In this document: positions 7,173 to 62,718 of the stretch, piece after piece
Numbering within the stretch: the first letter of the stretch is position 1
Layout of the letters: each line of letters opens with the position of its first letter
Source: Planctomycetota bacterium
GTDB lineage: Bacteria; Planctomycetota; MHYJ01; JACQXL01
NCBI GenBank assembly: GCA_043801445.1
Contig: JAZDMB010000046.1
Span: forward strand, 19,253 to 83,252
Reading direction: 5' to 3'
DNA: 64,000 nucleotides
The notes under the pieces: generated by a model
Seen by the model: the letters and a program-made list of their open reading frames with translations, nothing else
Database searches by the model: none
What the model was told of the DNA's origin: nothing
Translations under genes and position numbers: made by a program

Positions 7173-9254
7173 ATGCGGATGCAGTTAATAAATATCCTCA
7201 AACGGATTTATAACCCGTTGCTCACCAAACAGTTTAAAATAAGTTTGATAGCAATGGTTTATCTTTTAATCTGCTATACGTTATTGAGGCTGGGATTCTT
7301 TCTGGTAAATCACGGTTTTTTCAGTGATATTGGAACCGGTGAAATTATCCGGGCATTTCTCTACGGCATCCGTTTTGACATATCTGCCCTATTAATGATT
7401 AACGGCCCATTATTACTGCTTTATAATCTTCCGCTTAAATTAATCAATCGGAAATATTTCAAACTTATTCTACTGGTTCTATTCTTGTTATTAAACCTGA
7501 TATTCATCACCGTCAACTTAGCCGATTACGGTTATTTCCCGGTCACACAGCGCCGGTTGATGTCTGAGATTTATATTATGTTTGTTGATATAATGAGAAT
7601 GTTACCGAGTATGTTCTCTGATTACTATTATCTGTTTTTAGCGCTGGCAGTTGGCGGAATGATATTTATATTTACTGTCTGGCGCCTATTTAAAAAATTG
7701 GATAACTTAATCATCTACCAGCCCAATTTATGGCGAGATATTGGATGCCTTATCCTGTTAATCGGATTAATCACAATAGGAGTAAAAGGCGGTATTCAGA
7801 GAAAACCTATCCGTCAGGCGCATGCCTTTTGGTCTGCCAATCGGATTACCGGATACCTTACTCTGAATTCATCATTCACTACAATAAAAAGTCTCTTCCA
7901 AGCCGGTTTACCGCGTCATAGTTTTTTACCTGACAACGAAGCATCAGCAGAGTTAACCGCAATGCTGTGCCAGAAAAATGAGCAGATGATTGATGCGCAA
8001 TATCCTTTTCTGCGCCGGAAATCATTCCCGGACGCTCCCCAAAAACCAAATCTGGTTGTCTTCATTATGGAAAGCTGGACAGCAGATTATATCGGCTCTC
8101 TCTCCGGACAGACGCCATCCGCCACTCCTTTTTTTGACAGTCTTACAATAAGCGGCACGCTATTTACCAACTTCTTAGCCAATGGCCACCGTTCGGTCGT
8201 GGCTATACCATCCATTCTTGATTCTATTCCCGGTTTTTACTCCAACTCTCTTTCAGGCGTAGCCGCAGCGAAGTCCCGATTATTTCGGGGAAAAGGAAAC
8301 TCATTTATAGAATCACAATCTGAAGTAAATAACTACATCGGATTAGGTAACATATTGCTCAAGCAAGGGTACACCACCTCGTGTCATCATGGTGCCCGCC
8401 GAGGAGCGCTGGGTTTTGATATCCATTCGAAACTTTCAGGTTTTCTCAATTATTATGGTATGGAGGATTACCTGAAGTCCGGCGGTTCCAGCCGTGATAC
8501 GGTTTGGGGCGTGTGGGATGAGGAGTTTTTCCAGGATGCGCTATGCCGGATGGATAAATTCCAATCGCCTTTCTGCTCGGTGATATTCTCGCTCACTTCT
8601 CATGAACCCTTCAGGATTCCGCCGCACCGGCAAAAGTTATTCGAACAATATGCCGATGAAACCAATCTCCAGATAGCATTGCGCTATTCCGATTACAGCC
8701 TGCAACAATTCTTTCAAATAGCCCGGAAAAAACCATGGTTTGAAAACACTATTTTCATTATTACAGCCGACCATACCACTCATTCCAAAATGAATAATTT
8801 CTATTCCTGCTTCCATATCCCCCTATTGATTTATGCGCCCCGATGCTCCGATACGGGGCGTCCCGACCGAAGCGTCGGAGCGCCCGGATTGATTGCCCCG
8901 CAAATATGCAATACAATCGGCTCTCAGGTGGATATCCTGCCCACCATTCTGGACCTCTTGCATATTTCTGCCACTCACAACTCAATGGGTTCCTCGCTCA
9001 TGGATACTGAACGCACGCATTATACCGTGGTTACTGACGGTTCTATGTATGGAATTTTCAACAACCAATTTGTCCTGCTCAACGACCTTGAGAAAAACTT
9101 CGGATTATATAATTATCATCTCGACCCTATCTTGAAAAATGATATTCAGATAGAATATCCGGACGCAGCGCAAAAGTTAAGACACAGTCTCCTTGCCTAT
9201 ATCCAGTCTGTGTCCAATGCCATTGCCCAGAACAAAATCTGCCCGCCCCGTTAG
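7173..9254 (+). CDS. LTA synthase-family membrane sulfatase/phosphotransferase
   Basis: N-terminal TM segments; NLVVFIMESW, SHEPF, ITADH and SQVDILPT motifs; carries repeat insertions. Confidence 0.85.
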   Translation: MRMQLINILKRIYNPLLTKQFKISLIAMVYLLICYTLLRLGFFLVNHGFFSDIGTGEIIRAFLYGIRFDISALLMINGPLLLLYNLPLKLINRKYFKLILLVLFLLLNLIFITVNLADYGYFPVTQRRLMSEIYIMFVDIMRMLPSMFSDYYYLFLALAVGGMIFIFTVWRLFKKLDNLIIYQPNLWRDIGCLILLIGLITIGVKGGIQRKPIRQAHAFWSANRITGYLTLNSSFTTIKSLFQAGLPRHSFLPDNEASAELTAMLCQKNEQMIDAQYPFLRRKSFPDAPQKPNLVVFIMESWTADYIGSLSGQTPSATPFFDSLTISGTLFTNFLANGHRSVVAIPSILDSIPGFYSNSLSGVAAAKSRLFRGKGNSFIESQSEVNNYIGLGNILLKQGYTTSCHHGARRGALGFDIHSKLSGFLNYYGMEDYLKSGGSSRDTVWGVWDEEFFQDALCRMDKFQSPFCSVIFSLTSHEPFRIPPHRQKLFEQYADETNLQIALRYSDYSLQQFFQIARKKPWFENTIFIITADHTTHSKMNNFYSCFHIPLLIYAPRCSDTGRPDRSVGAPGLIAPQICNTIGSQVDILPTILDLLHISATHNSMGSSLMDTERTHYTVVTDGSMYGIFNNQFVLLNDLEKNFGLYNYHLDPILKNDIQIEYPDAAQKLRHSLLAYIQSVSNAIAQNKICPPR

Positions 9255-9346
9255 AAAGACCCGTAATGAGTTCGTCAGACAAACTATTGTTCTCACCTTT
9301 ATTATTGGACTTTCTAACGGGGTGAAGATGCATCAATGTCTTGCTA
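9243..9346 (+). mobile_element. MITE-like element, CCCCGTTAGAAAG...CTTTCTAACGGGG plus a 3' tail (copy 1)
   Basis: 13-bp perfect inverted repeats bounding 9246-9322; flanked by CTGC/CTGC; same length as the purL copy. Confidence 0.7.
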
Positions 9347-9395
9347 CTGCCGTGAGCGCGATATTAAATAACAACCGATAACCATCTCATCATCT

Positions 9396-9426
9396 ATCCC
9401 TTACGGGATACTATTAAACCGAATAC
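9396..9426 (-). repeat. Dispersed repeat GTATTC..TTAATAGTATCCCGTAAGGGAT
   Basis: Copies also at about 23196-23226 and 54983-55014; partial copy at about 34066. Confidence 0.75.
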
Positions 9427-9650
9427 TGTCAGGTATCAGATAATTATACTTTTACTTGCGGTATAGGAAAGTATAAAAAAGTAAGCGGATTCAGCTAATT
9501 TAACTGTATTGAAGACTTATTTCTATGCTATTTAATATGCTTAATCAGTTTTATCTGCTTAATCAGTTTACTAATTTCTTGACAATTATTACGATTGTTT
9601 GGAATAATTTATCATTAATCTAATTAAACTTATCAATAATAAAATAAGGA

Positions 9651-11180: not shown

Positions 11181-11190
11181 GAGAATACTT

Positions 11191-11347: not shown

Positions 11348-13018
11348 ATGGAATACGAACCTGTTCAAGCTCCGCGCGGCACGAAAATCTCCTGTAAATC
11401 ATGGCAGACCGAAGCGCCGATGCGGATGCTGATGAATAATCTCGACCCTGAAGTAGCCGAAGACCCGAAGAATCTGGTGGTCTACGGCGGTTCAGGCAGA
11501 GCCGTCCGCAATTGGGATTGCTTCCACAAGATTGTAAAAATACTGAAAGACCTTAATGATGACGAAACTTTATTAGTCCAATCCGGCAAACCGGTCGCGG
11601 TATTTAAAACCCACGAATTTGCGCCCAGGGTCCTGATTGCCAACAGCCTGCTCGTTCCGGCCTGGGCGAACTGGGAATATTTCCGTGAACTGGAATCAAA
11701 AGGTCTGACGATGTACGGACAGATGACAGCCGGCAGTTGGATTTATATCGGGACCCAGGGCATCTTACAAGGCACATACGAAACGTTCGCTGCCGCGGCT
11801 GAAAAGCACTTTTCCGCCAAAGGCGGATCCGCCTCTGGAGGACAAGGCAACCTCAGAGGCAAATTAGTCGTCTCAGCCGGCTTGGGCGGTATGGGCGGCG
11901 CACAGCCTCTCGCGGTTACTATGAATAAAGGCGTTTTTCTGGGCATAGAAACAGACCCGGAACGGATTATGCGCCGCATCAAAAACGGATATTGTAATAT
12001 CATGGCTGAAAGACTGGATACTGCCCTACGACTGGTGCGTACTGCCAAAAAGAACCGCGAACCGCTTTCAGTCGGACTGGTCGGTAACGCCGCTGAAATA
12101 CTGCCTGAAATGGTCAAGCAGGGCGTTGTGCCTGACCTGGTAACAGACCAGACCTCGGCGCATGATACGCTCAACGGCTATATCCCCAAAGGATTATCTC
12201 TGGAAGAAGCCAAAGCGCTGCGTAAATCCAATCCAAAAAAATATATGCAGTTGGCTGTTGAATCCATCGTCATCCATACTAAGGCAATGATTGATTTGCA
12301 GAAGATGGGCTCAATCGTATTTGAATACGGCAATAATATCCGCCAGCAGGCAAAATTAGGCGGCTTGTCAAATGCCTTTGATTTCCCCGGCTTTGTGCCG
12401 GCTTATATCAGACCGCTTTTCTGTGAAGGCAAAGGACCATTCAGATGGGTAGCGCTATCCGGCGACCCCAAAGACATCTATACCACCGATGAAATAATCT
12501 GTAAGAAATTCAAGTCTAATAAGAAACTGGTCCGCTGGATAAAAATGGTTCGGGAAAGTATCCAATTCCAGGGATTACCGGCGCGGATTTGCTGGCTGGG
12601 ACAGGGCGAACGCGCCAAATTCGGCGAAATTCTCAATCATCTGGTTAAGACAGGCAAAGTATCGGCTCCGATTGTCATCGGCAGAGACCATCTGGATACC
12701 GGCTCGGTCGCATCGCCATACCGCGAAACAGAAGGAATGAAAGACGGCAGTGATGCCATTGCCGACTGGCCTATTCTCAATGCCCTGCTCAATACCGCTT
12801 CAGGCGCCACCTGGGTATCGGTTCATCACGGCGGCGGTGTGGGCATCGGATATTCCATACATGCCGGTATGGTTACAGTAGCAGACGGCACAAAATTGGC
12901 ATCCAAAAAACTGGCGCTGGTTCTTAATAATGACCCGGGTATCGGCGTAGTTCGTCACGCTGATGCCGGCTATGAACAGGCGATTCAGACCGCACAGCAA
13001 CATAATATAAGAATGTAA
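11348..13018 (+). CDS. hutU: Urocanate hydratase
   Basis: [41 protein letters not shown]. Confidence 0.97.
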
Positions 13019-13056
13019 ACATCAATCGGAATCCGTCACATCAAAAGTTAATAATG

Positions 13057-13282
13057 GGACACAGATAAATACAGAGACTTCGCCTACACAGATTAACAGA
13101 ATTTATTTATAAGGAAACCATGAGACCAAGAAAATTACTCCTGTTTTTCCTGGTCTCCTTATAGAAATTATCCGCCTGCCCGACCTTTCGGTCGTTCGGG
13201 CGGGTGTCTATCTGCGTTCATCTGTGTCCTATGTGTCTCTGCGTTCTCTGCCTGCCCTCCGAAGCATTGCATAGGAGGGTGG
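13057..13282. repeat. Nested palindromic repeat cluster
   Basis: CACAGAT...ATCTGTG outer arms enclosing TTATAAGGAAACC...GGTCTCCTTATA and a 30-bp element at 13175-13204. Confidence 0.8.
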
Positions 13283-13380
13283 GTTCATTATTTAATCTGC
13301 CTGCCTACTTGGTGTAATCTACGGTTATGTTTTCGTGTCGGTGTATTGGAAAAAATGAGGAATAAAGAAGAGTATATTAT

Positions 13381-13969: not shown

Positions 13970-13975
13970 GATATT

Positions 13976-16679: not shown

Positions 16680-16988
16680 CTTTAATCTTAGTAATCTGGG
16701 GACATATGCGCCCAGTGCGTTTCTACCGATACTCGCTGATGGTTCGCTATGCCCGGTCACGGTAGTGTTTCCCGGGCTCGTGGAACAGACCACACATTTT
16801 TTTAGCCCTTTATCTATGCGTCTTTGCGGGCACGGTTTTTATAAAATGCACTGATTCCGGGTCAGCCACGAATTTACCGCACCTGCCCGAATGAACATTC
16901 GTTCAGGCGGGGAGACACAGAGAACACAAAGAAATCAGTCTGCTGTACCAAGAATTTACCAGATTTCCACTCCTTAGAGTTAATAAAA

Positions 16989-21086: not shown

Positions 21087-22763
21087 TTAGAATATCACGG
21101 CTCCTTTATATTCTCCAAAGACATCTCTAAGACTCTGCGAGATTTCTCCTAATGTGGCATTAGATTTGATTGCCTCAATTATCGCCGGCATAAGGTTGTC
21201 TTTGGATTGAGCAATTGTTTTCAGGTTGTTTAATGAATCAATTACCAGTTTGTTATTTCTGTTTTTCTTATACCGGTTAATTTTGGCTACCTGTTTTTTC
21301 TGTAATGCAGATGTAACCTTCAATGTATTGATTTTATACGATTCCTTAGCGGTAAATTTATTAACACCGACAATGATGCGCCGGTTATTTTCTATTTCCT
21401 TTTGATATTCATAGGCGCTCCTGGAGATTTCTTTCTGATAGAATCCGGTTTCAATGGCTTTGGTCGCACCGCCCAATTTGTCAATTTGATTGATATAATC
21501 AGTTGCTTCAATTTCTAATTTATCCGTGAGATTTTCCAGATAATATGAACCGCCCAATGGGTCAATTATCCGGCTGACCGCTGTTTCATAAGCGATGAGT
21601 TGCTGTGTTCTCAACGCAATCTGGACTGATTTTTCGGTCGGTAATGCCAATGCTTCATCGCGGGAGTTGCTATGCAGGCTCTGTGTTCCGCCAAGCACCG
21701 CAGTCATCGCCTGTAAGGCAACACGGGTAACGTTATTATCCGGCTGTTGAGCGGTGAGGGTGCAGCCGGCTGTCTGGGTATGGAAACGCAGCATCATTGC
21801 CCTCGGGTCGGTTGCCTTGAATCTTTCCTTCATAATCTTTGCCCAGAGCCTTCTGGCGGCGCGGAATTTGGCTATTTCTTCAAAGAAGTCGTTATGGGCA
21901 TTGAAGAAAAAAGATAATCTTTTACCGATTTCATTTACCCCGTTAGAAGCGTCCGATGCAGAAGCATTAAGATTACCGGTAGATTTATCCTTTTTATCGT
22001 GTTCGCTTCTAACGGGGTTTATATCAAGCCTCCGTTCGAGGCAGGTTTTTACATAACTGATTCCGTTGGCTAATGTGAATCCGATTTCCTGAGCCGCGGT
22101 TGAGCCGGCTTCCCTGATGTGATAACCGCTGACGCTGATAAAATTCCATTTCGGCAGGTTCTTAATGCAATATTCAATAGTATCCACAACCAATCTCAAG
22201 GACGGTTCAGGCGGGAATATATAGGCGCCGCGGGCAATGTATTCCTTGAGGATGTCATTCTGGACTGTTCCGGAAATATCAGCCACTTTGACTTTTTGTC
22301 TTTCTGCGAGGACCAGATACATTGCCAGGAGAATGGCGCAGGTGGCGTTGATGGTCATTGAGACGCTGATTTTGTCAAGAGGAATCTCGTCAAACAGGAT
22401 TTCCATATCAGCCAGAGAAGAGATATTGACGCCGGTTTTGCCTACTTCGCCGAGGCTCATCGGATGGTCTGCGTCATAGCCCATCTGGGTGGGTAAATCA
22501 AAGGCAATACTCAGACCGGTTTGGCCACGTTTGAGCAGGAATTTACAACGACGGTTGGTTTCTTCAGCCGTTGCGAATCCGGAGTATTGCCGCATTGTCC
22601 AGAGTTTGCCTCGATACATCGTCGGATGAACGCCACGAGTGAAAGGATATTCACCGGGCAAGCCAAGTTTATCCAGACCCTGAACAGAAGGGCTGGGTTC
22701 AGCAATGTCTTCCCCGTCTCGACGGGATTCCTTTGTCGGGAGTGGCGAATAAAATTGCTTCAT
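21087..22763 (-). CDS. Methylmalonyl-CoA mutase, substrate-binding subunit (split type)
   Basis: [34 protein letters not shown]; no B12-binding domain. Confidence 0.92.
21938..22017. mobile_element. 80-bp MITE-like element in frame in the mutase
   Basis: CCCCGTTAGAAGCG...CGCTTCTAACGGGG flanked by TTTA on both sides; 84 nt = 28 aa. Confidence 0.85.
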
Positions 22764-42849: not shown

Positions 42850-42870
42850 AAATTTCTCCTTCCTTTACTT

Positions 42871-44316: not shown

Positions 44317-44379
44317 CCTTACAATACTCCTTTCTTCCTCTGGGCGTCCCGACAAAAACTGTCGGGATAATAGGCATAA

Positions 44380-44739: not shown

Positions 44740-44743
44740 TTAA

Positions 44744-47105: not shown

Positions 47106-47162
47106 AGTATCCCGGTCCATCCGGACGCTCTATGCTCTACGCTCCACGCCCTACACTATTAT

Positions 47163-48302: not shown

Positions 48303-48505
48303 ACAGGGATCAAACTGGAAAATTTATAAGAAGACTAACCAAGTCGGTAAAGAAAACAGAAATTGTTCATCCTGCTCTCATGGATTCCTTATAAAAATAA
48401 TCTTCAACGATAAAGATAGGTTATGCGCGTCGCCCCTAAGGGCGCCGCCCATTAGAAGCAGCAGGGTAAAATTGTTGACTTTGTTAACAATCTCAACTTA
48501 TTCCA

Positions 48506-49048
48506 TCACTTTCCAGTAATGCCAGCCGAGACAATAAAAGCCATTACTTCCGGTCCGTCTTTATCAATTGGCGTTAATCTATCCCGTGGTACGATGAGAA
48601 GATTGCCGGCAAAATTATATGCTTGAGGAATATACACTGCAACCGAGTTTTGAATGCCAAGCGTATCAAGATTTTCCTTGGTAATAAAACCCAATATCTT
48701 TACGTCAGAATCAGAGGATAAGGTTACTAAAACAGGCTTATCAAATATCTTTTTATCACCGACAAAGGCATCCATCAGATCTTTTGCAGAAGAATAAAGC
48801 AGTTTTACAAAAGGTAATCTTTTAAAAATGTTATCAATAATTTTCAATACACTTTTTGCAAGGATATTTGAAGCAAAGAACCCGACCAGTGTAATCAAAA
48901 ATAGAGTAATAACAAATCCTACACCGGGGATAGGTATATGTAAGATACCGTCTATTTTGATAAATACGACATATACGACATAAATAGTAACTACGGACGG
49001 AACTACAAACAGCAATCCTTTAAGAAAATATGACATCAATCTTTTCAC
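48506..49048 (-). CDS. DUF502 membrane protein
   Basis: R.PFVK.LYS..K, YIP..YNFAG, SAG. Confidence 0.8.
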   Translation of the reverse strand: MKRLMSYFLKGLLFVVPSVVTIYVVYVVFIKIDGILHIPIPGVGFVITLFLITLVGFFASNILAKSVLKIIDNIFKRLPFVKLLYSSAKDLMDAFVGDKKIFDKPVLVTLSSDSDVKILGFITKENLDTLGIQNSVAVYIPQAYNFAGNLLIVPRDRLTPIDKDGPEVMAFIVSAGITGK

Positions 49049-49061
49049 AAAGTACTCCTTG

Positions 49062-49141
49062 CATCGTTAGAAGCGTTCATAAAGGTTGGTTAGAACATAG
49101 TAACGGTTTAGAATTATTGCTTTTGTTCGCTTCTAACGGGA
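49062..49141. mobile_element. Intergenic 80-bp MITE-like element (same subfamily as the mutase insert)
   Basis: CGTTAGAAGCG...CGCTTCTAACG with a 52-nt interior. Confidence 0.7.
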
Positions 49142-49168: not shown

Positions 49169-52100
49169 TTACCACCTTAATGGTTTCTGCCATGATTCCT
49201 TAAGATCTGATAGCGATTCATCAATGATTAACGAATTATCCAAGCCTTTAACTTTAAGCATTTTCTCCTTAATGGTTTTACCTATCAATCCGAAAGGGCA
49301 ATCAGCCATAAGTTTTTCAAAATCCGCCTTATGTTCAGGTTTAATTTCTACCAAGAAACGAGAATTGGATTCTGAGAAAAGAATAATATCATCCCTAATG
49401 GCGGTTAGCGATGAACGGTTAGCGGTGAGCGCCGCTGACCGCTCAAATGGCACAGCGGTAGCAAGGCACTGCTGCATCTTCACCCCGTTAGAAAGTCCTC
49501 CATTATGTTTTAATTCATCACTTATATCTTTATCATCATTCGTGTTCTTTCTAACGGGGCAGGCGGAAATATCAATCTCAAGTCCGACATCACCGGCAAA
49601 AGCCATTTCAGCTGCAGATACTGCCAATCCGCCTTCTGATAAATCATGACAGGCAGATACAAAACCCTTACGAATCGCTTCTGAAACAGCAATCATTATC
49701 TGACGTCCAAGCACAGCATCCACCTGAGGCACATTCTTTCCCAAATGACCAAGCAGGTCATAATAATGCGAACCTCCTAATTCATTATTGGTCATTCCGA
49801 CAATATATATTAAATCGCCGGCTTCTTTGATGTCCATTGAAACAGTTTGACGCACATCATCAATCACAGAAATAGCTGATATTAATAATGAATATGGAAT
49901 AGAAATAGTCTTTTTGGCTGAAACCCTATATTCATTATTGAGACTATCTTTTCCCGAAATAAAAGGTGTTTCATAAATATGTGCGATATCATAACAACCT
50001 TGAGCGGCTCTGACAATAGCGCCTAATTGTTTGGGATTACCCGCATTCCCCCAGCAAAAATTATCCAATAAAGCGGTCTGTTGAGGATTGCCGCCTACGG
50101 CCACGATATTTCTTAATGCCTCATCAATTGCAGATGCGGCCATATGATATGGGTCTATATCGCCATATTTTGGATTCATACCGTTTGATACGCAAAGTCC
50201 GCGATAAGAATCTAAAATCGGCCTGAAGACACAGGCATCTCCGGGCCCATCATTATTCTTGCCCTGTAACGGCTTAAGCACGCTGCCACCCTGAACCTCG
50301 TGGTCATATTGCCTGATGACCCATTCCTTAGAACATATATTCAGCATTGCCAGAATTTGATTTAAGATTTTACCAAAATCTTGAGAAGGCATAAATTCAG
50401 GCTCTTTTAACTTAGGCTCAGACCATTCAGCCGATAATTCCATCTTCGGTAAACCGTTATGTAGAAACTCCATTTCCAAGGTGCCCACTAAATTACCGTT
50501 GTATTTCAAAACCAATTTTTTATCATCGGTGAATCGTCCGATAATAGTGGCTTCTACACCTTCACGATTAAACAATTCCAGAATATCTTTCTCGTATTTG
50601 GGCGGAACAGATAAAACCATCCGTTCCTGCGCTTCAGAAATCCAGATTTCAGTATAAGACAACCCCTGATATTTAAGAGGCACTTTTCCCAGTTCAACGA
50701 TACATCCAAGGTCTTCAGCCATCTCCCCAACAGCGGAAGAAAGCCCACCGCCACCGCAGTCAGTTATAGCAGAATAATAACCCAAATCTCTTGCTCGCAG
50801 TAAAATATCCATCATCTTTTTTTCTGTGATGGCGTTCCCAATCTGGACCGCACCGGAAGAAATCATTTCAGACTTTTCATCCAATTCGAGCGATGCAAAA
50901 GTAACACCATGAATACCGTCACGACCTGTTCGTCCGCCGACTAAAAGTATCAAATCACCGGACTGCGAATGCTTGAAACATTTATTCCTGGGCATAATGC
51001 CTATCGTTCCGCAATATACAAGCGGATTAGCCAGATACCGGTCATCAAAATATAGCGCTCCATTCGCTGTCGGTATGCCCATCCGGTTACCATAATCCCT
51101 GACACCGGATACAACACCTTTGAATATCCTTTTAGGATGAAAAACACCATCCGGTAATTTTTCTAACGGGAAAGATGGTGAGGCGAAACAGAAAACATCA
51201 GTATTCAAAATAGGTTTAGCACCCAACCCGCAACCAAGCACATCCCTAATAACTCCGCCGATACCGGTCCCGGATCCGCCATAAGGCTCTATTGCCGAAG
51301 GATGATTATGAGTCTCCACTTTAAAACAAACCGCATTATTCTTATCGAATTCAATAATGCCGGCATTATCCTTAAACACAGAAATACACCACGCCTTATT
51401 TAATTCGTTGGTTACCCGCATCACGGTTTGTTTTAGAAGATTATCTATCTTTTGGGTAGTGATTTTACCGCCAGCTGATTCCACCTGATATTTAATAATG
51501 CCTCTCAATGTTTTATGCTTGCAATGTTCACTCCAAGTCTGAGCAATAGTTTCCAGCTCAATGTCAGTCAGATTGCGTTGCTGTTTAAGAGAATAGTCCC
51601 TGATGGTTTTCATCTCATGCACATTTAATGAAAGATTCCGATTCTTACTGATTGTAAAAAGAGCATCATCGGACACATCAATTAGAGCTATCGTATCTAA
51701 TTTAAATGAATACAAAGGTGCATCCGGTATTTCGGCGAGCATTTTATGACCAATAAAAACATTCTCTATGACGTTATTGGCAAATATCTTTGAAGAAAGC
51801 CGAAGGATATCATTATGTGAAATATTCCCGTTGATATAATATTTACGACCTGTCCGAACAGATTTGATTCTGAACCCGGAATCATTAATGGCTTTAAGAA
51901 GACTTGATTCTACCGGGTCCATTACGCCCGGTTTAAGAAATACCGTAACCACCTGATGAGCGTCATTCTTAAATATTTCCAACGGTTTATTTATAGAATA
52001 TTCTTGAACCGTCTTATCAGAAAGAATATCGCCGGAAATAATATCGACATCACCATCAATTAACTCACCGTCCAAAACATAGATAGAAACAAAACGAACA

Positions 52101-52204
52101 TCATCAATACCCGCAACTCCGAACTCAATAATATCCTGCTTGACAAATGCGCCAATCGGGTCTGGCAATCCCGATTTCAGAACAACCTCTATCTGATAAA
52201 TCAT
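49169..52204 (-). CDS. purL: Phosphoribosylformylglycinamidine synthase PurL with PurS-like N-terminal domains
   Basis: QTWSEHCKHK, VETHNHPS, GRDGIHG, QYDHEV, SGKDSL, HDLSEGGL. Confidence 0.96.
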   Translation of the reverse strand: MIYQIEVVLKSGLPDPIGAFVKQDIIEFGVAGIDDVRFVSIYVLDGELIDGDVDIISGDILSDKTVQEYSINKPLEIFKNDAHQVVTVFLKPGVMDPVESSLLKAINDSGFRIKSVRTGRKYYINGNISHNDILRLSSKIFANNVIENVFIGHKMLAEIPDAPLYSFKLDTIALIDVSDDALFTISKNRNLSLNVHEMKTIRDYSLKQQRNLTDIELETIAQTWSEHCKHKTLRGIIKYQVESAGGKITTQKIDNLLKQTVMRVTNELNKAWCISVFKDNAGIIEFDKNNAVCFKVETHNHPSAIEPYGGSGTGIGGVIRDVLGCGLGAKPILNTDVFCFASPSFPLEKLPDGVFHPKRIFKGVVSGVRDYGNRMGIPTANGALYFDDRYLANPLVYCGTIGIMPRNKCFKHSQSGDLILLVGGRTGRDGIHGVTFASLELDEKSEMISSGAVQIGNAITEKKMMDILLRARDLGYYSAITDCGGGGLSSAVGEMAEDLGCIVELGKVPLKYQGLSYTEIWISEAQERMVLSVPPKYEKDILELFNREGVEATIIGRFTDDKKLVLKYNGNLVGTLEMEFLHNGLPKMELSAEWSEPKLKEPEFMPSQDFGKILNQILAMLNICSKEWVIRQYDHEVQGGSVLKPLQGKNNDGPGDACVFRPILDSYRGLCVSNGMNPKYGDIDPYHMAASAIDEALRNIVAVGGNPQQTALLDNFCWGNAGNPKQLGAIVRAAQGCYDIAHIYETPFISGKDSLNNEYRVSAKKTISIPYSLLISAISVIDDVRQTVSMDIKEAGDLIYIVGMTNNELGGSHYYDLLGHLGKNVPQVDAVLGRQIMIAVSEAIRKGFVSACHDLSEGGLAVSAAEMAFAGDVGLEIDISACPVRKNTNDDKDISDELKHNGGLSNGVKMQQCLATAVPFERSAALTANRSSLTAIRDDIILFSESNSRFLVEIKPEHKADFEKLMADCPFGLIGKTIKEKMLKVKGLDNSLIIDESLSDLKESWQKPLRW
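49459..49562 (-). mobile_element. 104-bp MITE-like element in frame in purL
   Basis: Inverted repeats bounding 49483-49559; CCGC/CCGC flanks; 108 nt = 36 aa. Confidence 0.8.
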
Positions 52205-52405: not shown

Positions 52406-54520
52406 ATGAATAGAATAAATTGCAGAACACGAATCGAACAAATAATAACGAATTACACAAATATCATAAATAAAATTATTAGCGCTCATTCGTCTTTATT
52501 CGTCTTTATTCATGTTACTCGTTTTAATACAATTGCTTTATCCTTACTGTTGGTCTTTACTCTATCCTCACTAATAAAGGCGCACCACGAATTACTGCCT
52601 GCTCCTGAACGGGAGTATCTCAAACTCATCTCACTACATCCATTTAAGGATAAACTAATCTCACTCCGATGCTCACGAGCGGAGTGCCCCGTATCCCCGC
52701 AGGGCATCGGGGCACAAGGAAACTACGATTTCTTTATTACAATTGTCGAATCAGCGCCGGATACCTTTGATATCATTTTTTATATAGAAAATTCTCTGTT
52801 CAAAAGGGCCGTACGCTCTTCCAAGGAAATATTACTCTATCGCAGCGATACAAAAATCACTGATAAATTTATTCTGGAAAGTGACATATCAGGAGTCTCA
52901 AGCTTGAAATATTTTGCTCATAAGCCGTTCGAGACAAGTATTAAGGTATCTGCCAAAACTTCCGACAATGAACCAATCTCGGTAAAAACAGATATCCAGA
53001 TAGGTTCGCCCCCGCCATCTATAATTTTCATCGTAACATTTATATTGATAATACTAATTGCGATAATCAGTGTTTATTTACCACAAAAGGGTAAATTGAA
53101 CATTGAACATGAACATTGTTCACTGCGTATAATGAATATACTTAATAACGTTTTTATTTATCGTCTCTTTAAAAGCCGATTCTTTATCTTCCTATTAAAA
53201 CTTCCTTTTGTCCTGATTTTTATCTTCATCATCTTCAGCGGATTATTCGGCAGCGTATACAAAAACATCAGCAATTTTATAGTCGGTCCTGTATGGCTTT
53301 TATTTATTTCCATACTGGCGTTGCTTGGCGGAAAATTCTGGTGCCTAATATGCCCATGGAATACGCTTTCTGATTGGCTGCAGGGCGCTTGTTTTTCCGG
53401 TGATTCCAATTCATTAAATCTCAAGGTGCCTAAAATATTGCGCAATTATTGGATAGCAATATTCCTTTTTATACTGATAATCTGGTTAGAATACAGCATC
53501 GGAATGACTGATAAAGCAAGGTTAATTGCGTATCTGGCGATGATTACCTTCGGCATCACCTTTATCTGGGCTATATTCTTTCATCGCAAATCATTCTGCC
53601 GGTACGGTTGTCCGGTCGGCGCAATATGCGGATTATACGGACTCTTTGCGCCATTGGAATTAAGAAGCAATAATAAAGATATCTGTAATAATTGCAAAAC
53701 TAAAGATTGCATTACGGAGCGACAGCGGAGTCCCGACCCAATCGGGAAGGGTAACCAAAAGGGAATCGGCTGTCCGGTATATGAATATCCTGCTACTATT
53801 AAAAATAATCTTTATTGCATCTACTGCACCGAATGCATCAAAACCTGCCCGAACGATAATATCGCCATAAATCTACGGCTGCCGGCTAAAGATATGTTCA
53901 AGCAAAATCCTTTGCATCTGAGCGAGGTATTCATAATTATCACCATACTGGCGTTATCCGTATTCGGCGCTTTGAACATCAGCAGTATTCATTTCAATAT
54001 TCTGGATTGGTCGCGGGCAGCTTTTAACGCCTCCGAATCTATTACCCAATTATTGTTGATGACCTGTTTGATTATAGCGTTTACAGTTCTATTTTTCCTT
54101 TTATCTTTTATTGCCCGTCTCAATGTAAATATTATTGCCTATGCATTTTTGCCTGTAGCACTATTCAATCATATTGCCAATACTTTCAAATTGATGAATA
54201 TGCGCGGTCAGGAAATAATCTCGCTCATATCAGACCCCTTCGGACTCTCGTGGAATCTTTTCGGAACCGCCGGCTATGTGCCCAAGCCGATTATCGGTCC
54301 CGGCAGTGGCAATTGGTCTGACCGCTTAATATCAAACCCGACTGCTATCAACCCGTTGATTCTGATACTTGCTCCCATAATGATTATCGGGTTACTATAT
54401 TCAGCATTTCTAACCTATCGTTTAATTAAAAACAACAACAAACCAGCCATGTTTTTCCTGTTATTTATCATCCCGATGATTATTATTGTCTGGTTTAATT
54501 GGTGGCTGATGGATAAATAA
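52406..54520 (+). CDS. Membrane 4Fe-4S binding protein (NosR/NapH-like)
   Basis: FWCLICP, FCRYGCP, CIYCTECIKTCP; TM helices; start uncertain. Confidence 0.8.
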   Translation: MNRINCRTRIEQIITNYTNIINKIISAHSSLFVFIHVTRFNTIALSLLLVFTLSSLIKAHHELLPAPEREYLKLISLHPFKDKLISLRCSRAECPVSPQGIGAQGNYDFFITIVESAPDTFDIIFYIENSLFKRAVRSSKEILLYRSDTKITDKFILESDISGVSSLKYFAHKPFETSIKVSAKTSDNEPISVKTDIQIGSPPPSIIFIVTFILIILIAIISVYLPQKGKLNIEHEHCSLRIMNILNNVFIYRLFKSRFFIFLLKLPFVLIFIFIIFSGLFGSVYKNISNFIVGPVWLLFISILALLGGKFWCLICPWNTLSDWLQGACFSGDSNSLNLKVPKILRNYWIAIFLFILIIWLEYSIGMTDKARLIAYLAMITFGITFIWAIFFHRKSFCRYGCPVGAICGLYGLFAPLELRSNNKDICNNCKTKDCITERQRSPDPIGKGNQKGIGCPVYEYPATIKNNLYCIYCTECIKTCPNDNIAINLRLPAKDMFKQNPLHLSEVFIIITILALSVFGALNISSIHFNILDWSRAAFNASESITQLLLMTCLIIAFTVLFFLLSFIARLNVNIIAYAFLPVALFNHIANTFKLMNMRGQEIISLISDPFGLSWNLFGTAGYVPKPIIGPGSGNWSDRLISNPTAINPLILILAPIMIIGLLYSAFLTYRLIKNNNKPAMFFLLFIIPMIIIVWFNWWLMDK

Positions 54521-54895: not shown

Positions 54896-55184
54896 ACAGT
54901 ATCCATCAAATAGAACGCAGATTTTCACAGATAAATGCAGCTAATATAAGAGGTTTTGAGTGAATTACTCTTTCAATTAACTGTATTCTATATTAATAGT
55001 ATCCCGTAAGGGATAGAACAGATAAAATCCCCCTATTTCATCCTTTGTCAAAGATGAATTTACAAAAACTTTCGGTTAATAACTACTATAACAAAGACAC
55101 TAAATCATTTTTTTTGTTTACTATAGGTTAAGACTTTGTTAACGAGGTAACATTTTCCATACCTGATGCCGATTTTGTGCATAA

Positions 55185-55449
55185 TAGACCGTAAGTCCGT
55201 GGCAAATAGACCGTAAGTATCTGGCACATAGACCATAAGTATCTGACATATAGACCGTAAGTATATGGCACATAGACCGTGAGTATCTGGCATATAGACC
55301 GTGAGTATTTGGCATATAGACTGGGAGTATGTGGCATATAGACCGGGAGTATGTGGCATATAGACTGGGAGTATGTGGCATATAGACTGGGAGTATATGG
55401 CACATAGACTGGGAGTATGTGGCACATAGACCGTAAGTAGTTTGGCAGA
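55185..55449. repeat. Tandem array of 12 x 22 bp (TAGACYGKRAGTATNTGGCAYA)
   Basis: Units start every 22 nt from 55185 to 55427, with no spacers. Confidence 0.92.
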
Positions 55450-55507
55450 TACACTTAATACTGACCTTAAATACCCCCCTGCCCTATCCTACCCCCTCTG
55501 TCTCCTT

Positions 55508-56069: not shown

Positions 56070-56375
56070 TAAAATAATATAATTCCGTATTCGTTAAACC
56101 TGCCCGACTAGTCAGGCGGGTAGGACACAGATTTTCGCAGATACACGCTGATAATTTTTATAAGGAGACCGTGCCTTCGCCGAAGGCTTCGCGCAGGCAG
56201 GCCACGAAACCAAGATTAATTCCTTCTTGTATTCCTGGGTTCCTTATAAATAAAATCCTGTTAATCTGCATATTTGCAAAGCAAATCAACGTTCCATTAT
56301 ATCTGATATGACTGATTCCGTATAATTATTATTTTCTTTGTGTTCTTTGTGTCTTTGTGGTAAACTAAAGTTATT

Positions 56376-57461
56376 ATGCGTAAATATAATGTTGCCATTG
56401 TCGGAGCCACTGGGCTGGCTGGACTAGAGACCATAAAAATACTTGCAGAACGTAAATTCCCTGTCAGCGAATTACGATTATTTGCTTCTGCAGGGTCAGC
56501 AGGAAAAAGTATAAAGTATCAAAGTAAAAAGATAAAAGTAAAGGAAATAAATAATAATGCATTCAAGGATATAGACATTGCCTTTTTTGCGGTTGATGGT
56601 TCAATCAGCAAGAAGTGGGCGCCGGTGGCAGTAAAGAGCGGAGCATTAGTAATTGACAAATCCAGCGCATTCAGGATGGATAAAAACGTGCCTCTGGTTA
56701 TTCCTGAAATAAACCTGCAGGCAATTGAAGAAAAGATAATAGATGAAAGAAAAAAGATGAAAGATAATAACCAAAAACTCTCATCTCTCATCTCTCATCT
56801 TTCATCTCTTCCCATGATTATTGCCAGCCCTAATTGCTCAACCGTTCCTTTGGCAATGATTCTAAAACCTCTCAACGATTATGCGAAAGTAAAAAGGGTC
56901 GTGGTATCCACTTATCAATCCGTTTCAGGTGCAGGACTGAAAGCAGTGCAGGAAATGGAGCAACAAACAAAACGGATTCTCCAACGAACAACGAGCAACG
57001 AGCAACGAACGACTAAACCTTTTGCCTTCAACGCCATCCCCCAAATAGATTCTTTCGGCTCAGATGACTACACCGGTGAAGAAACGAAAATGATAAATGA
57101 AACTCTCAAGATACTTGATGACTATTCTATAAAGATAACAGCCACCTGTGTGCGGATTCCGGTCTATTGCGGGCATAGCGAATCGGTCAACATCGAGACA
57201 GCCAGACCTATAACGATTACTACAATCAGAAAATTATTAATCAAAACAAAAGGTGTCACGGTAATGGACAATCCACAAAATGGTATTTATCCGATGCCGA
57301 TAGAGGTTGCAGGCAAAGACGATGTATATGTAGGCAGGATTCGTAAAGACCCGACAGTCAAGAACGGGCTGAATCTCTGGCTGGTATCGGACAACCTGCG
57401 CAAAGGCGCCGCACTTAATGCAGTCCAAATAGCGGAATACCTTATTAATCGTTTTTTGTAG
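56376..57461 (+). CDS. asd: Aspartate-semialdehyde dehydrogenase
   Basis: GATG, SSAFRM, PNCST, YQSVSGAG, TCVRIPV..GHS, DNLRKGAA. Confidence 0.96.
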   Translation: MRKYNVAIVGATGLAGLETIKILAERKFPVSELRLFASAGSAGKSIKYQSKKIKVKEINNNAFKDIDIAFFAVDGSISKKWAPVAVKSGALVIDKSSAFRMDKNVPLVIPEINLQAIEEKIIDERKKMKDNNQKLSSLISHLSSLPMIIASPNCSTVPLAMILKPLNDYAKVKRVVVSTYQSVSGAGLKAVQEMEQQTKRILQRTTSNEQRTTKPFAFNAIPQIDSFGSDDYTGEETKMINETLKILDDYSIKITATCVRIPVYCGHSESVNIETARPITITTIRKLLIKTKGVTVMDNPQNGIYPMPIEVAGKDDVYVGRIRKDPTVKNGLNLWLVSDNLRKGAALNAVQIAEYLINRFL

Positions 57462-57567: not shown

Positions 57568-59436
57568 ATGAATCAATACGATATCATTGTCGTCGGCGCC
57601 GGACACGCCGGGATAGAAGCCGCTTTGGTTTCTGCACGGATGGGTTGTTCCACGCTTCTTTTAACCATCTCTTTTGATTCTATCGCCCAGATGTCTTGTA
57701 ATCCCGCAATCGGTGGTTTAGCCAAGGGCCAGTTGGTTCGTGAGATTGATGCTCTGGGCGGTGAAATGGCTCGCGCCACTGATTATTCGGGCATCCAATT
57801 CCGTATTCTCAATACCGGTAAAGGTCCGGCTGTCCAATCTCCCCGCGCCCAATGTGATAAAAAAGAATATCACCTTTATATGCGAAAGGTATTAGAAAAT
57901 CAGGATAACCTTACTCTCAAAGAGTTGATGGTTGAAGAGATTATTGTGGACCATAATAAAGTAGTTGGTATTAAATCCCAAATCACAAATCTCAAATCTC
58001 AAATCCCGAATGAATATTACGCCAAGGCAGTCATCATCACCACAGGCACTTTTATGAAAGGGCTGATACATATCGGCGAAGAACAGTTCCCCGGCGGCAG
58101 AATCAACGAGCCGTCAGCCGAAAATATTTCAGCAAGTTTAAAGAAGATTGGATTGGAATTGGGACGCCTTAAGACCGGCACTCCCCCACGACTTGATACC
58201 CGAACCATAGATTATTCAAATCTGAGAGTTCAAAACGGTGATGAACCACCCAAACCTTTTTCATTCTCTACTGACCGAATTACCCAAAAACAGATTCCGT
58301 GTTATATAACTCATACCAATAAAAATACACACGAGATTATCAAGAAGAATTTACACCGCGCACCGCTTTATACAGGGCAGATTAAAGCCATCGGCCCGCG
58401 ATACTGCCCTTCGATTGAAGACAAGATAGTCAGATTTGCCGAGAGAGACCAGCACCAGATTTTTCTTGAGCCGGAAGGAAAAAACATTCATGAAGTCTAT
58501 TGTAACGGTATCTCAACCAGTCTGCCCCGTGATGTGCAGGAAGAAATGGTCCATTCGATTGATGGTTTAGAAAAAGCTAAATTTATCCGCTACGGCTATG
58601 CCATAGAATATGATGTGATCTTACCATATCAGATAAAGCCATCGCTTGAAACCAAGAAAATAGAGAATCTCTTTTTGGCAGGCCAGATAAACGGAACATC
58701 AGGTTACGAAGAAGCCGCAGCTCAGGGAATTATGGCTGGTATCAATGCTGTATTGAAAATCAGGAAAGAACCTGCCTGCGCCGAGGCTTCGGTAGGCAGG
58801 CCTCTTTTTATGCTCTCCAGAAGTGATGCCTATATCGGCGTCTTGGTAGATGATTTAGTAACACTGGGACCAACCGAACCGTATCGGATGTTCACTTCGC
58901 GCGCCGAATACCGCTTGCTACTGCGTTCCGACAATGCCGATAGACGTCTGATGCCTTACGCATTTAAGTTGGGGTTGCTCAATAAAGAACTACAGCACAG
59001 ATTACATAGTAAAGAAGAACTCATACAGAAAACAATCACTTTATTAAATAAATCATTTTCTAATGGTAAATCATTCAAAAGACTATTAAAACAACCTGAA
59101 ATCAGGCTTAAAGAATTAGAAGAAAAATCAAAACAATTACGATTACTGAATCTTACCGATGACATAAGGGAACAGGTTGAAATCGAAGTCAAATATGAAG
59201 GCTATATCCAGCGACAATTGCGTCAGATTGAACGGGCTAAGAAAATGGAGGATTATTTATTACCAGCCGAATTTGATTACAATAAAATAAAACATCTCAG
59301 CAAAGAAGCCAGGACCCAATTAAACAAATTCACGCCGTTATCCTTAGGCCAGGCAAGCCGTATCGCCGGCGTATCACCGGCAGATATTTCAGTTCTTATG
59401 ATATATTTCCTGAAGAAAAATAAAACCGCTGATTAA
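57568..59436 (+). CDS. mnmG: tRNA uridine-5-carboxymethylaminomethyl modification enzyme MnmG
   Basis: GAGHAG, MSCNPAIGG, KTGTPPR, GPRYCPSIEDK, GYEEAAAQG, RMFTSRAEYRL. Confidence 0.98.
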   Translation: MNQYDIIVVGAGHAGIEAALVSARMGCSTLLLTISFDSIAQMSCNPAIGGLAKGQLVREIDALGGEMARATDYSGIQFRILNTGKGPAVQSPRAQCDKKEYHLYMRKVLENQDNLTLKELMVEEIIVDHNKVVGIKSQITNLKSQIPNEYYAKAVIITTGTFMKGLIHIGEEQFPGGRINEPSAENISASLKKIGLELGRLKTGTPPRLDTRTIDYSNLRVQNGDEPPKPFSFSTDRITQKQIPCYITHTNKNTHEIIKKNLHRAPLYTGQIKAIGPRYCPSIEDKIVRFAERDQHQIFLEPEGKNIHEVYCNGISTSLPRDVQEEMVHSIDGLEKAKFIRYGYAIEYDVILPYQIKPSLETKKIENLFLAGQINGTSGYEEAAAQGIMAGINAVLKIRKEPACAEASVGRPLFMLSRSDAYIGVLVDDLVTLGPTEPYRMFTSRAEYRLLLRSDNADRRLMPYAFKLGLLNKELQHRLHSKEELIQKTITLLNKSFSNGKSFKRLLKQPEIRLKELEEKSKQLRLLNLTDDIREQVEIEVKYEGYIQRQLRQIERAKKMEDYLLPAEFDYNKIKHLSKEARTQLNKFTPLSLGQASRIAGVSPADISVLMIYFLKKNKTAD

Positions 59437-60852: not shown

Positions 60853-61015
60853 CCTTAAAATCAGCCACCCCGCTTGGGCGGGACTCCGCTGTCGCTTCGC
60901 AGACCCGTCCCGATGAATATCGGGAGAACACAGAGAAAGAAATTAAATTTAATTATCCGTGTTTATCTGCCTGCCCGACCTTTCGGTCGTTCGGGCGGGT
61001 GGTTACGAAATATTA

Positions 61016-61873
61016 TTATTGCGGATTTAACAAAACCACATCGGTTTTACAATCAACTATTATTGGTTTTTGTCCGGCACCGAGTACGCCACCGAACCAA
61101 AGATTGATTCTGACCCGATTACCATTACTACCGCTGGTAACCAAATTATTATTCTTATCACGGAGACTGAATATCGGGTCATTTGCTCCATCATTATTAA
61201 TATCAAGATATCTATTAGTCGCAACGGTTATAATATTACCGCCTAAATTTACCTGTTCTTGAAGAACACCCCCTGCATTATATACGTATTTCCATAAATT
61301 ACCTGTATCAAAAGAATCTATAATATCTCCATCTCCATTATAATCTAAATGCGTGGTGGCTTCAACAAGATTGGGAGTTGGATTATTCGGCACAAAATCA
61401 TATATAATATACCAGTTCTGATTGTCATTTGCGCCCCAGTATATTGCGCCTGTTGCAGGATCCCAGTAGTTACCTCCGACCTTTACCGGAACTTTCAGGG
61501 TAAGAGTCGCATAATTATTAGATGTAGTGGGCATACTTCCTGTTATAACAAAGCATTCATTTATATCTTCTTTTATAATGTCTGTTAGTCGCATCCCTTC
61601 AGATTCCAAGTAAGACTCCATTGCTCCCTCAGTATATATATTCTGTGAACTTATAATAACATACATTGCTCCAACAAGCATACCGGTCAGTATGGTTACT
61701 ACTATCATAAGCTCAATCAAGGTAAACCCCGTTAGAGATAGGTCGCCCGTAGGCGACCGTTCTGTCTTATAAACAATAGTTTTATCCTTCTGGGACGGAT
61801 TATATAAGAGTTTACCAATAGTTGCTTTAGACATCTCTAACTGGGTAAACCCTTCTTGCGAATTAGTATTCAT
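61016..61873 (-). CDS. Prepilin (PilW/GspJ-like) with a repeat insertion in its leader
   Basis: GFTLIELMIV motif preceded by a 41-aa insert. Confidence 0.8.
   Translation of the reverse strand: MNTNSQEGFTQLEMSKATIGKLLYNPSQKDKTIVYKTERSPTGDLSLTGFTLIELMIVVTILTGMLVGAMYVIISSQNIYTEGAMESYLESEGMRLTDIIKEDINECFVITGSMPTTSNNYATLTLKVPVKVGGNYWDPATGAIYWGANDNQNWYIIYDFVPNNPTPNLVEATTHLDYNGDGDIIDSFDTGNLWKYVYNAGGVLQEQVNLGGNIITVATNRYLDINNDGANDPIFSLRDKNNNLVTSGSNGNRVRINLWFGGVLGAGQKPIIVDCKTDVVLLNPQ
61727..61845. mobile_element. 119-bp MITE-like element at the prepilin G-F-T site
   Basis: CCCCGTTAGAGAT...ATCTCTAACTGGG flanked by TAAA/TAAA. Confidence 0.85.
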
Positions 61874-61875
61874 AA

Positions 61876-62358
61876 TTAGTATCTGTTATGCCTGGAAAAA
61901 ATAGTCCTTGTTACATACTCATTATATACGCTTGCACTAGTATTCCCTTTTATTCGCCATCTAACAGTAATTTTAATGTCATAAAGTTTACACGCGGATA
62001 GATTATTATGACAACTACTACCAGAACCATCAAGATTGGTGCCGTGGTCGCTGCATTGAATTTGTTCTATCCTGCCGGCTTGTGTCCAGCCGGTAGGAGC
62101 AGTCAAACCGGTCACCGCAAAATAAGTTCCGCTTATACCATGAATAGACGTAAAATCTTTGCCTCTAACCTCTTCTAGTTGAGCCGCAGCAGCATTGCGA
62201 GCAATATCATATTCTCGTGATGTTTCTTTCTGCAATACCCCCCCACTCAATACCGATAATAAAGTCAAAGTTCCAATGGTCAACAATACCATTGCTATTA
62301 TTACCTCTATAAGTGTAAAACCTGAAAAACAAACTTCACTGGTCGTATGATTTCTCAT
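61876..62358 (-). CDS. Prepilin (PilV/GspI-like)
   Basis: GFTLIEVIIAM. Confidence 0.8.
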   Translation of the reverse strand: MRNHTTSEVCFSGFTLIEVIIAMVLLTIGTLTLLSVLSGGVLQKETSREYDIARNAAAAQLEEVRGKDFTSIHGISGTYFAVTGLTAPTGWTQAGRIEQIQCSDHGTNLDGSGSSCHNNLSACKLYDIKITVRWRIKGNTSASVYNEYVTRTIFSRHNRY

Positions 62359-62581
62359 AATCTTTTATTTAACAATACAGAAAATTATAAACACGAATAG
62401 CGCGAATTCGGTGAACAACACGAATATTAAAATATAATTCCTTATTCGCGTGATTCGTGTTCCTATTTTTCTTATCCCTTAAACCCTTTGTAATTATACA
62501 CACCAGACAGACCGTTGTCAATAGAAAAATCAAAGAATCTATATAAGCAGCTAAAAGTTCCAACTTTTTACTTGCTACTTG

Positions 62582-62685
62582 CCCCGTTCGAAAGTACCAT
62601 AATTAGAGATAAAGATAAACATATTAGTCTTTCACCCCGTTCGAGAACTTTCTAACGGGCTGAAGATACAGCAAAAACCTGCTCT
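62582..62685 (+). mobile_element. Degenerate copy of the tailed MITE-like element
   Basis: CCCCGTTCGAAAG...CTTTCTAACGGGCTGAAGATACAGCA. Confidence 0.65.
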
Positions 62686-62718
62686 GTTTTTTACTTTTAA
62701 CTTTATGATTATAGTGCT

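Follow-up and report, generated by a model that had tools for sequence, protein, structure and literature searches.

Short GC-rich palindromic repeats inserted in frame into conserved genes of a groundwater Planctomycetota genome

Exact DNA insertions underlie extra peptides in 10 genes of a 64,000-nt stretch from a Planctomycetota metagenome-assembled genome (MAG), designated G000, and most of the inserted stretches recur elsewhere in the same genome. The stretch (hereafter the window) spans positions 19253-83252 of contig C19, and coordinates below are window positions unless a contig is named. We interpret the inserted elements as probably representing non-autonomous selfish DNA of the kind known from repetitive extragenic palindromic (REP) sequences and Rickettsia palindromic elements (RPEs), tolerated here within coding sequence. 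The G000 assembly comprises 2,310,769 bases in 62 contigs, with 40% GC, no N and a completeness of 95%; the nearest named records of the window MnmG protein come from Planctomycetota MAGs, part of them labelled Brocadiia, and the metagenome runs containing the window stretch derive from groundwater and freshwater sediment, with no RNA run among those listed. Proteins were compared with solved structures (PDB) and with their counterparts in as many as 30 related genomes, and DNA was compared with that of G001, the sole genome of the same genus, which is only 69% complete. The family labels A, B/B-long, C/C2, E, F, G, H and P3 are those of this analysis.

Insertion is exact and occurs without target duplication. 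DNA alignments with G001 revealed sequence present only in G000 at 11 places in seven genes, with sharply bounded edges and lengths of 30, 30, 30, 33, 33, 45, 51, 57, 60, 60 and 78 nt, all of them multiples of 3. No duplicated target was detected at these 11 filled/empty pairs, save for a possible 6-nt GCGCCC repeat at 8835-8879, and the pairs include family F only within the composite purL gap (see below), never as a copy alone. Reciprocally, one 30-nt copy, placed after window position 47801 in thiE, is present in G001 and absent from G000. At the protein level, the inserts of each of the 10 genes are missing from the same-genus genome, from 12-29 relatives or from solved structures. The urocanase encoded by hutU shows a clean 10-residue gap against all PDB urocanases, and residues 243-274 of the acyl-CoA mutase lie opposite 4 residues of 4r3u. 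In the purL product, residues ~886-935 are missing in 12/12 aligned relatives, including G001 (91% identity), and both extra peptides of the DUF1015 protein are likewise missing in 12/12. Of 29 aligned relatives, 26, among them G001 (87.5% identity), lack the MnmG peptide PACAEASVGR; of the remaining three, G008 and G015 have a different insert in the same loop, and in G011 (L030) the aligned gap is shorter by one residue. Around the inserts, the open reading frames (ORFs) and conserved flanks of these conserved-protein genes are retained, as is typical of RPEs.

A first-pass annotation of this DNA had proposed about 20 foreign peptides in about 12 genes, each encoded by an inserted hairpin or repeat. 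When structures, relatives and the gaps against G001 are considered, this count is essentially right, and the origin of the peptides from inserted repeat DNA is borne out by the clean gaps unique to G000 and by the genome-wide repetition of the stretches. Two of the proposed cases stand in part. The AT-rich palindromic insert of asd (56733-56816, inverted repeat I3, in the gene at 56376-57461) does correspond to a gap in PDB ASD, residues 120-147 lying opposite ~5 residues of 2qz9, but this insert of 23-28 residues, with GATGAAAGA-type arms, is single-copy in G000. In a prepilin gene (61016-61873), the leader region carries a 36-nt element of family H (61725-61760), which does belong to a repeat family, with 15 copies. 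Both inserts are common to G001, and recent insertion is not confirmed for either of them.

Several genes of the window carry more than one insert. In a lipoteichoic acid (LTA)-synthase/sulfatase-like gene (7173-9254), a 33-nt family E insert (..AGTCCCGATTATTTCGGGG, 8259-8291) and a 45-nt family C2 insert (..CCCCGATGCTCCGATACGGGGCG.., 8835-8879) are both absent from G001. The same holds in lpxK (45897-47105) for a 57-nt family B-long element that includes the peptide SAFGG (46238-46294) and for a 30-nt family A-like copy on the plus strand encoding PPDRMTSQTG (46728-46757), and in a 4Fe-4S membrane protein gene (52406-54520) for a 51-nt family C double hairpin (52662-52712) and a 33-nt family E-like insert encoding RQRSPDPIG (53714-53746). 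Single inserts absent from G001 are the 30-nt family B double hairpin of hutU (11813-11842, in the gene at 11348-13018), the 30-nt family G palindrome that encodes PACAEASVGR in mnmG (58771-58800, in the gene at 57568-59436), and a 60-nt insert of nested family A units (47469-47528) in the thiE-containing ORF at 47163-48302. This last ORF encodes 379 aa, with a long N-terminal part before the thiamine-phosphate synthase-like sequence, and may be a fusion or an extended gene. In purL (49169-52204), a P3 unit, a tail and a family F unit form a three-unit chain at 49397-49561, of which 138 nt are absent from G001 in two gaps (49397-49474, 78 nt, and 49497-49556, 60 nt); the encoded peptide has six further ORF matches within G000. 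The acyl-CoA mutase gene (21087-22763, minus strand) contains a family F element of ~82-84 nt (21937-22018, inverted repeat I10), with perfect 15-nt terminal inverted repeats and a variable core between them, in a part that no G001 contig covers. In a hydrolase gene (34194-35321), the sole basis of the case is an nhmmer match to family A (35206-35234, minus strand), which encodes PPDQMPVRAG directly after a signal-peptide-like stretch. Finally, the DUF1015 gene (42871-44355) harbors two family A copies, a 30-nt one on the minus strand (43937-43966) and a second on the plus strand (43983-44012), oppositely oriented and separated from the first by 16 nt, thus resembling the inverted doublets of REPs known as REPINs.

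The insertions are recent, since the two congeneric species differ in their sites, and strains that are 98% identical differ at one site. The latter is the DUF1015 site at 43937, where precisely 30 nt are missing in one contig each of the metagenome runs X1 and X2; one of the two family A copies of this gene is therefore polymorphic on its own, which supplies the filled/empty polymorphism that the first-pass annotation had suggested looking for. In a contig of run X3, positions 43920-44018 are replaced by 37 nt, leaving the locus 60 nt shorter. These data also bear on the concern that the hairpins might be chimeric joins or other errors of assembly and binning. Repeats do disturb the assembly, as 48 of its 124 contig ends have a repeated segment no more than 80 nt away. 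However, a 6930-nt contig of run X1, possibly the very one that lacks the 30 nt at 43937, differs from the window at 132 positions, spans 42800-49114 and includes the lpxK and thiE inserts, so that independent contigs from other runs bridge them; moreover, the same families occur in 8-13 other MAGs searched, depending on the family, and the frames stay open. An artefact is thus largely refuted, with a probability close to nil. The four runs were examined as contigs only, showing presence and bridging, and one of them may be the MAG's own source sample; many contig joints and loose ends at repeats, as well as uncovered parts, were left uninterpreted.

Comparison of the window with G000 by short-word BLAST yielded 46 repeated stretches, and the whole genome contains 1457 repeated segments, a set that also includes protein-level repeats. 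The 1299 segments of up to 200 nt divide into 643 intergenic, 516 within ORFs and 140 overlapping an ORF edge. Single-linkage clustering of the repeated segments lumped AT-rich intergenic families together, mixed in protein-level repeats, and served only as a guide. A whole-genome scan for perfect-stem hairpins of at least 9 bp returned 338 against 122 in locally shuffled sequence and was dropped: it missed most elements because their stems hold conserved mismatches, and repeat families were used instead. Ten profile models were seeded from the exact window inserts, leaving families outside the window unmodelled, and ORFs were called in-house, so that the resulting locus counts are lower bounds. 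Family A is represented by 90 copies (E<0.01), of which 58 lie in ORFs, 29 are intergenic and 3 are at ORF edges. The other models gave 48 copies for family B (41 in ORFs), 44 for B-long (35), 14 for C (13), 30 for C2 (29), 15 for E1 (10), 50 for F (22), 15 for H (9), 9 for P3 (all in ORFs) and 2 for G (both in ORFs). Merging yields 248 loci: 172 are contained in ORFs (148 different ORFs), 66 lie between genes and 10 touch an ORF edge. A strict count, restricted to copies at least 20 codons from both ends of an ORF of 150 aa or more, leaves 138 copies in 117 of the 1571 ORFs of that length. The existence of several sequence families, most of them also found between genes, agrees with what the first-pass annotation had stated; ~70% of the loci are intragenic, the reverse of the mainly extragenic placement that characterizes REPs and REPINs. 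The window itself provides intergenic copies of family A (13175-13204, 16882-16911 and 60970-60999) and of family F (9244-9325, 49065-49138 and 62580-62663). An Rfam scan of the window returned no family at gathering score.

Abundant AT-rich repeat families are nearly restricted to intergenic DNA, e.g., at window positions 13026-13327, 30903-30974 and 56101-56364. They include AGCCACAGATTACACAGAT (54 copies of its 14-mer), ATTCGTGTGATTCGTGTT and TATAAGGAAACCATGAGACCAAGA, and are often joined with a family A-like hairpin as larger units. The largest AT-rich cluster has 319 segments, of which 236 fall between genes and 25 within ORFs.

Family A allows the anatomy of a unit to be described. The unit, CCCGCC[T/C]GA..TCGGGCAGG, is 30 nt long in 46 of the 58 copies within genes and in 22 of the 29 between genes, and its nine outer stem pairs are invariant in 47/47 distinct copies, a short imperfect palindrome in many copies, as REPs are. 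Pair 3-28 is an invariant C.A mismatch; read on the opposite strand, it is a T.G wobble. The flanks are mutually unrelated, 53 of the 77 full copies having no matching flank bases at all. Genic copies occur in both orientations and use the five open frames of the six, the frame that reads TGA being almost unused. The most frequent peptides are PARPDGRSGG (20 copies), LPDLxxGQAG (13), PPDRxxxRAG (10), TRPNDRxVGQA (9) and TCPTGxPVRRV (5). Use is not even: 38 copies are opposite to the gene and 20 in the same orientation (p 0.025), and the open frames are unequally populated (p 0.03).

The unit of family A is itself a multiple of 3, in genes and between them alike. In family F, by contrast, the multiple-of-3 rule is a selection filter: the lengths between its fixed end motifs fall into the mod-3 classes as 16/5/0 in genic and 9/4/9 in intergenic copies, one class thus holding 0 of 21 genic and 9 of 22 intergenic copies. 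The first-pass proposal that inserted lengths are multiples of 3 accordingly stands for all 11 gaps and for family A everywhere, whereas for family F it describes only what selection has left in genes. For families B, E and G, lengths of 30-33 nt come from the window inserts, and full-length copies outside ORFs are too few for a statement of fixed length. Family F elements measure 75-84 nt and carry terminal inverted repeats of 12-15 nt (CCCGTTAGAAAG .. CTTTCTAACGGG), with several sub-families sharing the same ends; in G000, G004, G008 and G009 the ends and a total of ~73-76 nt are kept, and the ~50-nt core is strongly divergent among the sub-families. Nesting, also anticipated by the first reading of the sequence, was observed in the thiE 60-mer, where a 30-nt unit matching family A sits within the loop of another 30-nt A-like unit. 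A composite in which family A has a second hairpin in its loop was found at seven loci.

The same protein loops have been hit repeatedly in different lineages. Relatives carry different hairpin inserts at the loops occupied in G000, namely in mnmG (G008 and G015), purL (G008) and DUF1015 (G001, G004 and G006), and these lineage-specific inserts are likewise GC-rich hairpins; in G001, a B-long unit occupies the exact DUF1015 loop in which G000 has its two family A units. Such recurrence, together with the orientation and frame biases of family A, would be expected if the inserts were retained as useful to the host, either at the RNA level, through hairpins that tune the stability or translation of mRNA, or as functional loops of the protein. 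Nevertheless, a small number of permissive loops explains the repeated hits equally well, the sites vary between congeners and even between strains, and the host genes encode unrelated housekeeping enzymes. In an AlphaFold model of MnmG based on a 25-sequence alignment (mean predicted local distance difference test score, pLDDT, 89.2; predicted template modelling score, pTM, 0.91), the insert is a low-confidence stretch (residues 405-410, pLDDT <50) in the coil following the helix at 380-398, and the peptide is therefore predicted to be disordered, which also speaks against a functional loop. The DUF1015 model is poor (mean pLDDT 61.7) and shows the insert region, residues 114-141, as unstructured between two strands. 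Retention for host use is accordingly improbable.

The host range of the elements is narrow. The family A pattern has 88 matches in G000, 27 in G001, 0-14 in eight other genomes of the same taxonomic family and 2-4 in the family designated f4. It gave no match in the other 49 genomes searched across the order, class and phylum, and the reversed pattern used as a control gave none, G000 included, so that chance is excluded. Family A is hence confined to one family-level clade and one neighboring family. Family B reaches 35 matches in G000, 31 in G001 and up to 61 in G008 (forward and reverse matches being summed, so that palindromic sites are counted twice), with taxonomic families f1, f4 and f5 positive. 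Family F has 45 sites in G000 and 30 in G001; five other f1 genomes have 3-35, G002 and G003 have 0, and f4 and f5 are represented by one genome each, with 2 sites and 1 site, respectively. Neither B nor F was found in 15 class-level genomes; their range resembles that of family A and is somewhat wider within the order, as it extends to f5.

How the units move is the least certain part of the argument. On the selfish-DNA reading favored here, several families of short GC-rich imperfect palindromes would have copied themselves to hundreds of sites in a 40%-GC genome, as 30-57-nt units plus the 75-84-nt family with terminal inverted repeats. Copies within genes would survive where the unit length is a multiple of 3 (family A) or has been filtered by length (family F); stop codons would be rare in them because they are GC-rich; and the short encoded peptides, rich in Gly, Pro, Arg, Ser and Asp, may be tolerated as disordered surface loops. 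Most speculatively, the units might move as single-stranded hairpins through a structure-specific enzyme acting in trans, for which the Y1 (HUH) transposases would be candidates.

G000 encodes Y1_Tnp (HUH) genes of three types, on contigs C14, C58 and C43, together with one IS110 and two DDE_Tnp_1 genes. The 231-236-aa Y1_Tnp genes at C58:40276-41036 and C14:16186-16961 each lie within their own 15-21-nt inverted repeat. Contig ends interrupt the C14 type, of which two or more identical copies exist (contig C14 ends in a second identical start, and C5 in its C-terminus), and the C43 gene is cut by a contig end. Upstream of the C58 gene, C58:41080-41480 consists of 400 nt of irregular GGGGTATCCC / GGTATATCCC-like repeats, with an 86%-identical copy at C16:28077-28413. 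TnpB (PF07282) and rve (PF00665) had no match in the 95%-complete G000. As the first-pass annotation had noted, the window is devoid of transposases, in that none of the five families searched genome-wide matches there. Its idea of a transposase flanked by the same ends as the elements found no counterpart: as far as examined in this fragmented MAG, none of the Y1, IS110 and DDE_Tnp_1 genes is bordered by hairpin-element ends.

The best guess for a mobiliser, a tentative one, is a hairpin-specific HUH enzyme acting in trans. A more specific version, in which one of the Y1 tyrosine transposases of G000 mobilises the units, making them coding-tolerant REPs served by an enzyme comparable to the REP-associated tyrosine transposases (RAYTs) or to those of TIRYT elements (see below), is possible though doubtful. 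In its favor are the presence of three Y1_Tnp types, with the C14 type in multiple copies, the exact ends without target duplication, the conserved asymmetric mismatch in the stem and the nesting of units in the loops of others.

Several observations weigh against this proposal or against the selfish-DNA reading as a whole. The C14 and C58 genes are flanked by GGGACAGACCACATATTTTC and GGTGACACACACCTT, repeats with a few solo copies elsewhere, and not by families A-H. The flanks of the 77 full family A copies bear no GTAG/CGTC tag, their most frequent upstream 4-mers being CATC, AATC and CTTT. Y1 homologues are patchy across relatives, with no clear correlation with element load, and none was found in G001 (69% complete) despite its dozens of elements. 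The orientation of family A is not associated with GC skew (p 0.34, 0.73), giving no support for insertion into lagging-strand single-stranded DNA. Single 30-nt units fold only modestly better than shuffled sequences (z -1.4 to -3.7), the 82-nt element folding strongly (z -7.4), and covariation lends no support to the family A stem, in which the outer pairs are invariant and the inner pairs out of register. A C.T. pattern precedes 25 of 77 family A copies against a 5.5% background, but the coding-strand flanks are A-rich in either orientation, and this preference may reflect selection for Lys/Glu/Asp-rich loops instead of a target site. Lastly, the genome-wide ORFs to which the loci were assigned come from a crude in-house ORF caller.

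Failure to link any enzyme to the elements leads to a further alternative, namely spread by a non-transposase or undescribed mechanism, such as templated insertion at breaks, gene conversion between hairpins or a structure-specific recombinase, in which case the elements would form a new class of coding-adapted mobile hairpin. Units of just 30 nt, an intragenic share of ~70% and the retention of family F termini and length around a core that varies widely between copies and genomes would suit such a process. We regard it as unlikely, since it argues from absence in fragmented MAGs and since short palindromes, in-frame inserts, nesting and insertion without duplication each have known precedents. 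Equally small is the chance that ultra-small (30-nt) mobile hairpins adapted to coding sequence, moved by a structure-specific mechanism other than RAYT/REP, are a main source of new protein loops in these organisms, hitting the same loops repeatedly. Were this the case, such hairpins would reside in well over a hundred genes per genome, with multiple-of-3 units, mostly stop-free frames and loop-compatible peptides, in a host clade of small-genome groundwater Planctomycetota.

Two further repetitive features of the window are separate observations. An intergenic tandem array at 55140-55464, with a 22-nt period and ~14 copies, generates spurious ORFs of ~106 aa on both strands. Long repeats inside an 1855-aa ORF at 35696-41263 recur with periods of ~300 and ~2100 nt, and Gly-run motifs are numerous in it; the repeats have relatives on other contigs, pointing to a protein-level repeat family separate from the hairpin elements.

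Selfish DNA that writes itself into proteins was previously a curiosity mainly of Rickettsia. Here it appears at higher density, with smaller units and in greater variety, in a lineage known from groundwater metagenomes, and its filled/empty sites indicate a recent process. As a natural experiment, the elements reveal which conserved-enzyme loops accept 10-50 additional residues, and they are a warning to those who annotate these genomes or use them in phylogenetics that their lineage-specific "indels" are repeat insertions. The 30-nt unit with its invariant mismatch offers a defined substrate for finding the mobilising enzyme.

No description of these elements in Planctomycetota was found in the literature searched, and the known systems that they resemble differ from them in several respects. 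RPEs, summarized in PMC10969869 as ~150-bp sequences of ten families that are inserted at 44 places in R. conorii, almost half of these within ORFs, are similar in that palindromic repeats of several families lie in frame in unrelated housekeeping genes, with some copies intergenic, and in that the added peptides are thought to be compatible with the protein fold (PMC10969869, PMC3733652). The present elements differ from the RPEs of that account (PMC10969869) in size and number, being mostly 30-57 nt long and occupying 172 ORF loci. The hosts also differ, an obligate intracellular alphaproteobacterium in one case and a groundwater Planctomycetota MAG in the other, and the elements described here are GC-rich within a 40%-GC genome; they are compared with RPEs by description and size.

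REPs inside genes were reported from several species by Di Nocera et al. (2013; PMC3733652), Opitutus terrae and R. conorii having the highest numbers. As described there, intragenic GTAG-/CGTC-tagged REPs are 20-40-bp stem-loops that occur singly, as dimers or in groups coding for 20-30 or more residues, and Rhodopirellula baltica combines tagged REPs with many tyrosine transposases (PMC3733652). Both they and the present elements are short stem-loops within genes for known proteins, and the Planctomycetes-Verrucomicrobia-Chlamydiae (PVC) group is involved in both cases (PMC3733652). In the same source, TIRYT is the name for Y1 genes lying between long inverted repeats that have no relation to REPs (PMC3733652), and the C14 and C58 Y1 genes, bracketed by their own inverted repeats, are similar to these. 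The first-pass annotation had inferred a distinct system from the number, density and nesting of the elements; the inserts are indeed dense, varied and nested, but in-frame REP and RPE inserts were already known, including those of O. terrae, itself a PVC bacterium (PMC3733652), and the idea of a distinct system is borne out only in part. A difference from the tagged REPs of that account is their mostly intergenic position, against ~70% in ORFs here, although the densities are not exactly comparable (PMC3733652). Another is the missing GTAG/CGTC tag on family A.

REPINs and their RAYTs involve imperfect palindromes, at times arranged as inverted doublets, that are non-autonomous and clade-specific. 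The DUF1015 doublet (43937-43966 and 43983-44012) and the non-autonomous, clade-specific nature of the present elements recall them, but the RAYT-like genes of G000 are not flanked by units, and the units move singly and mostly into genes. [quoted passage not shown] With palindromes derived from IS200/IS605, which insert beside a fixed target of 4-5 nt, without duplication and with a replication-linked strand bias, the comparison is mixed: here there is no duplication, a partial flank bias (25/77), no link to GC skew, and TnpB was not found in G000. In yeast mitochondria, GC clusters are a case of hairpin-forming DNA tolerated within coding sequence. Coding palindromes in the mitochondria of Nematomorpha, as presented in PMC6649704, similarly show that hairpin DNA can be tolerated there. 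Both are features of organelle genomes, of other sizes and presumably of other origins, and are compared with the present elements by description. The small dispersed repeats of cyanobacteria are another family in which nesting occurs. Relative to these earlier cases, the elements of G000 are distinguished by smaller units that are mostly intragenic, by many families in one small genome, and by the absence of both a GTAG/CGTC tag and a flanking RAYT gene.

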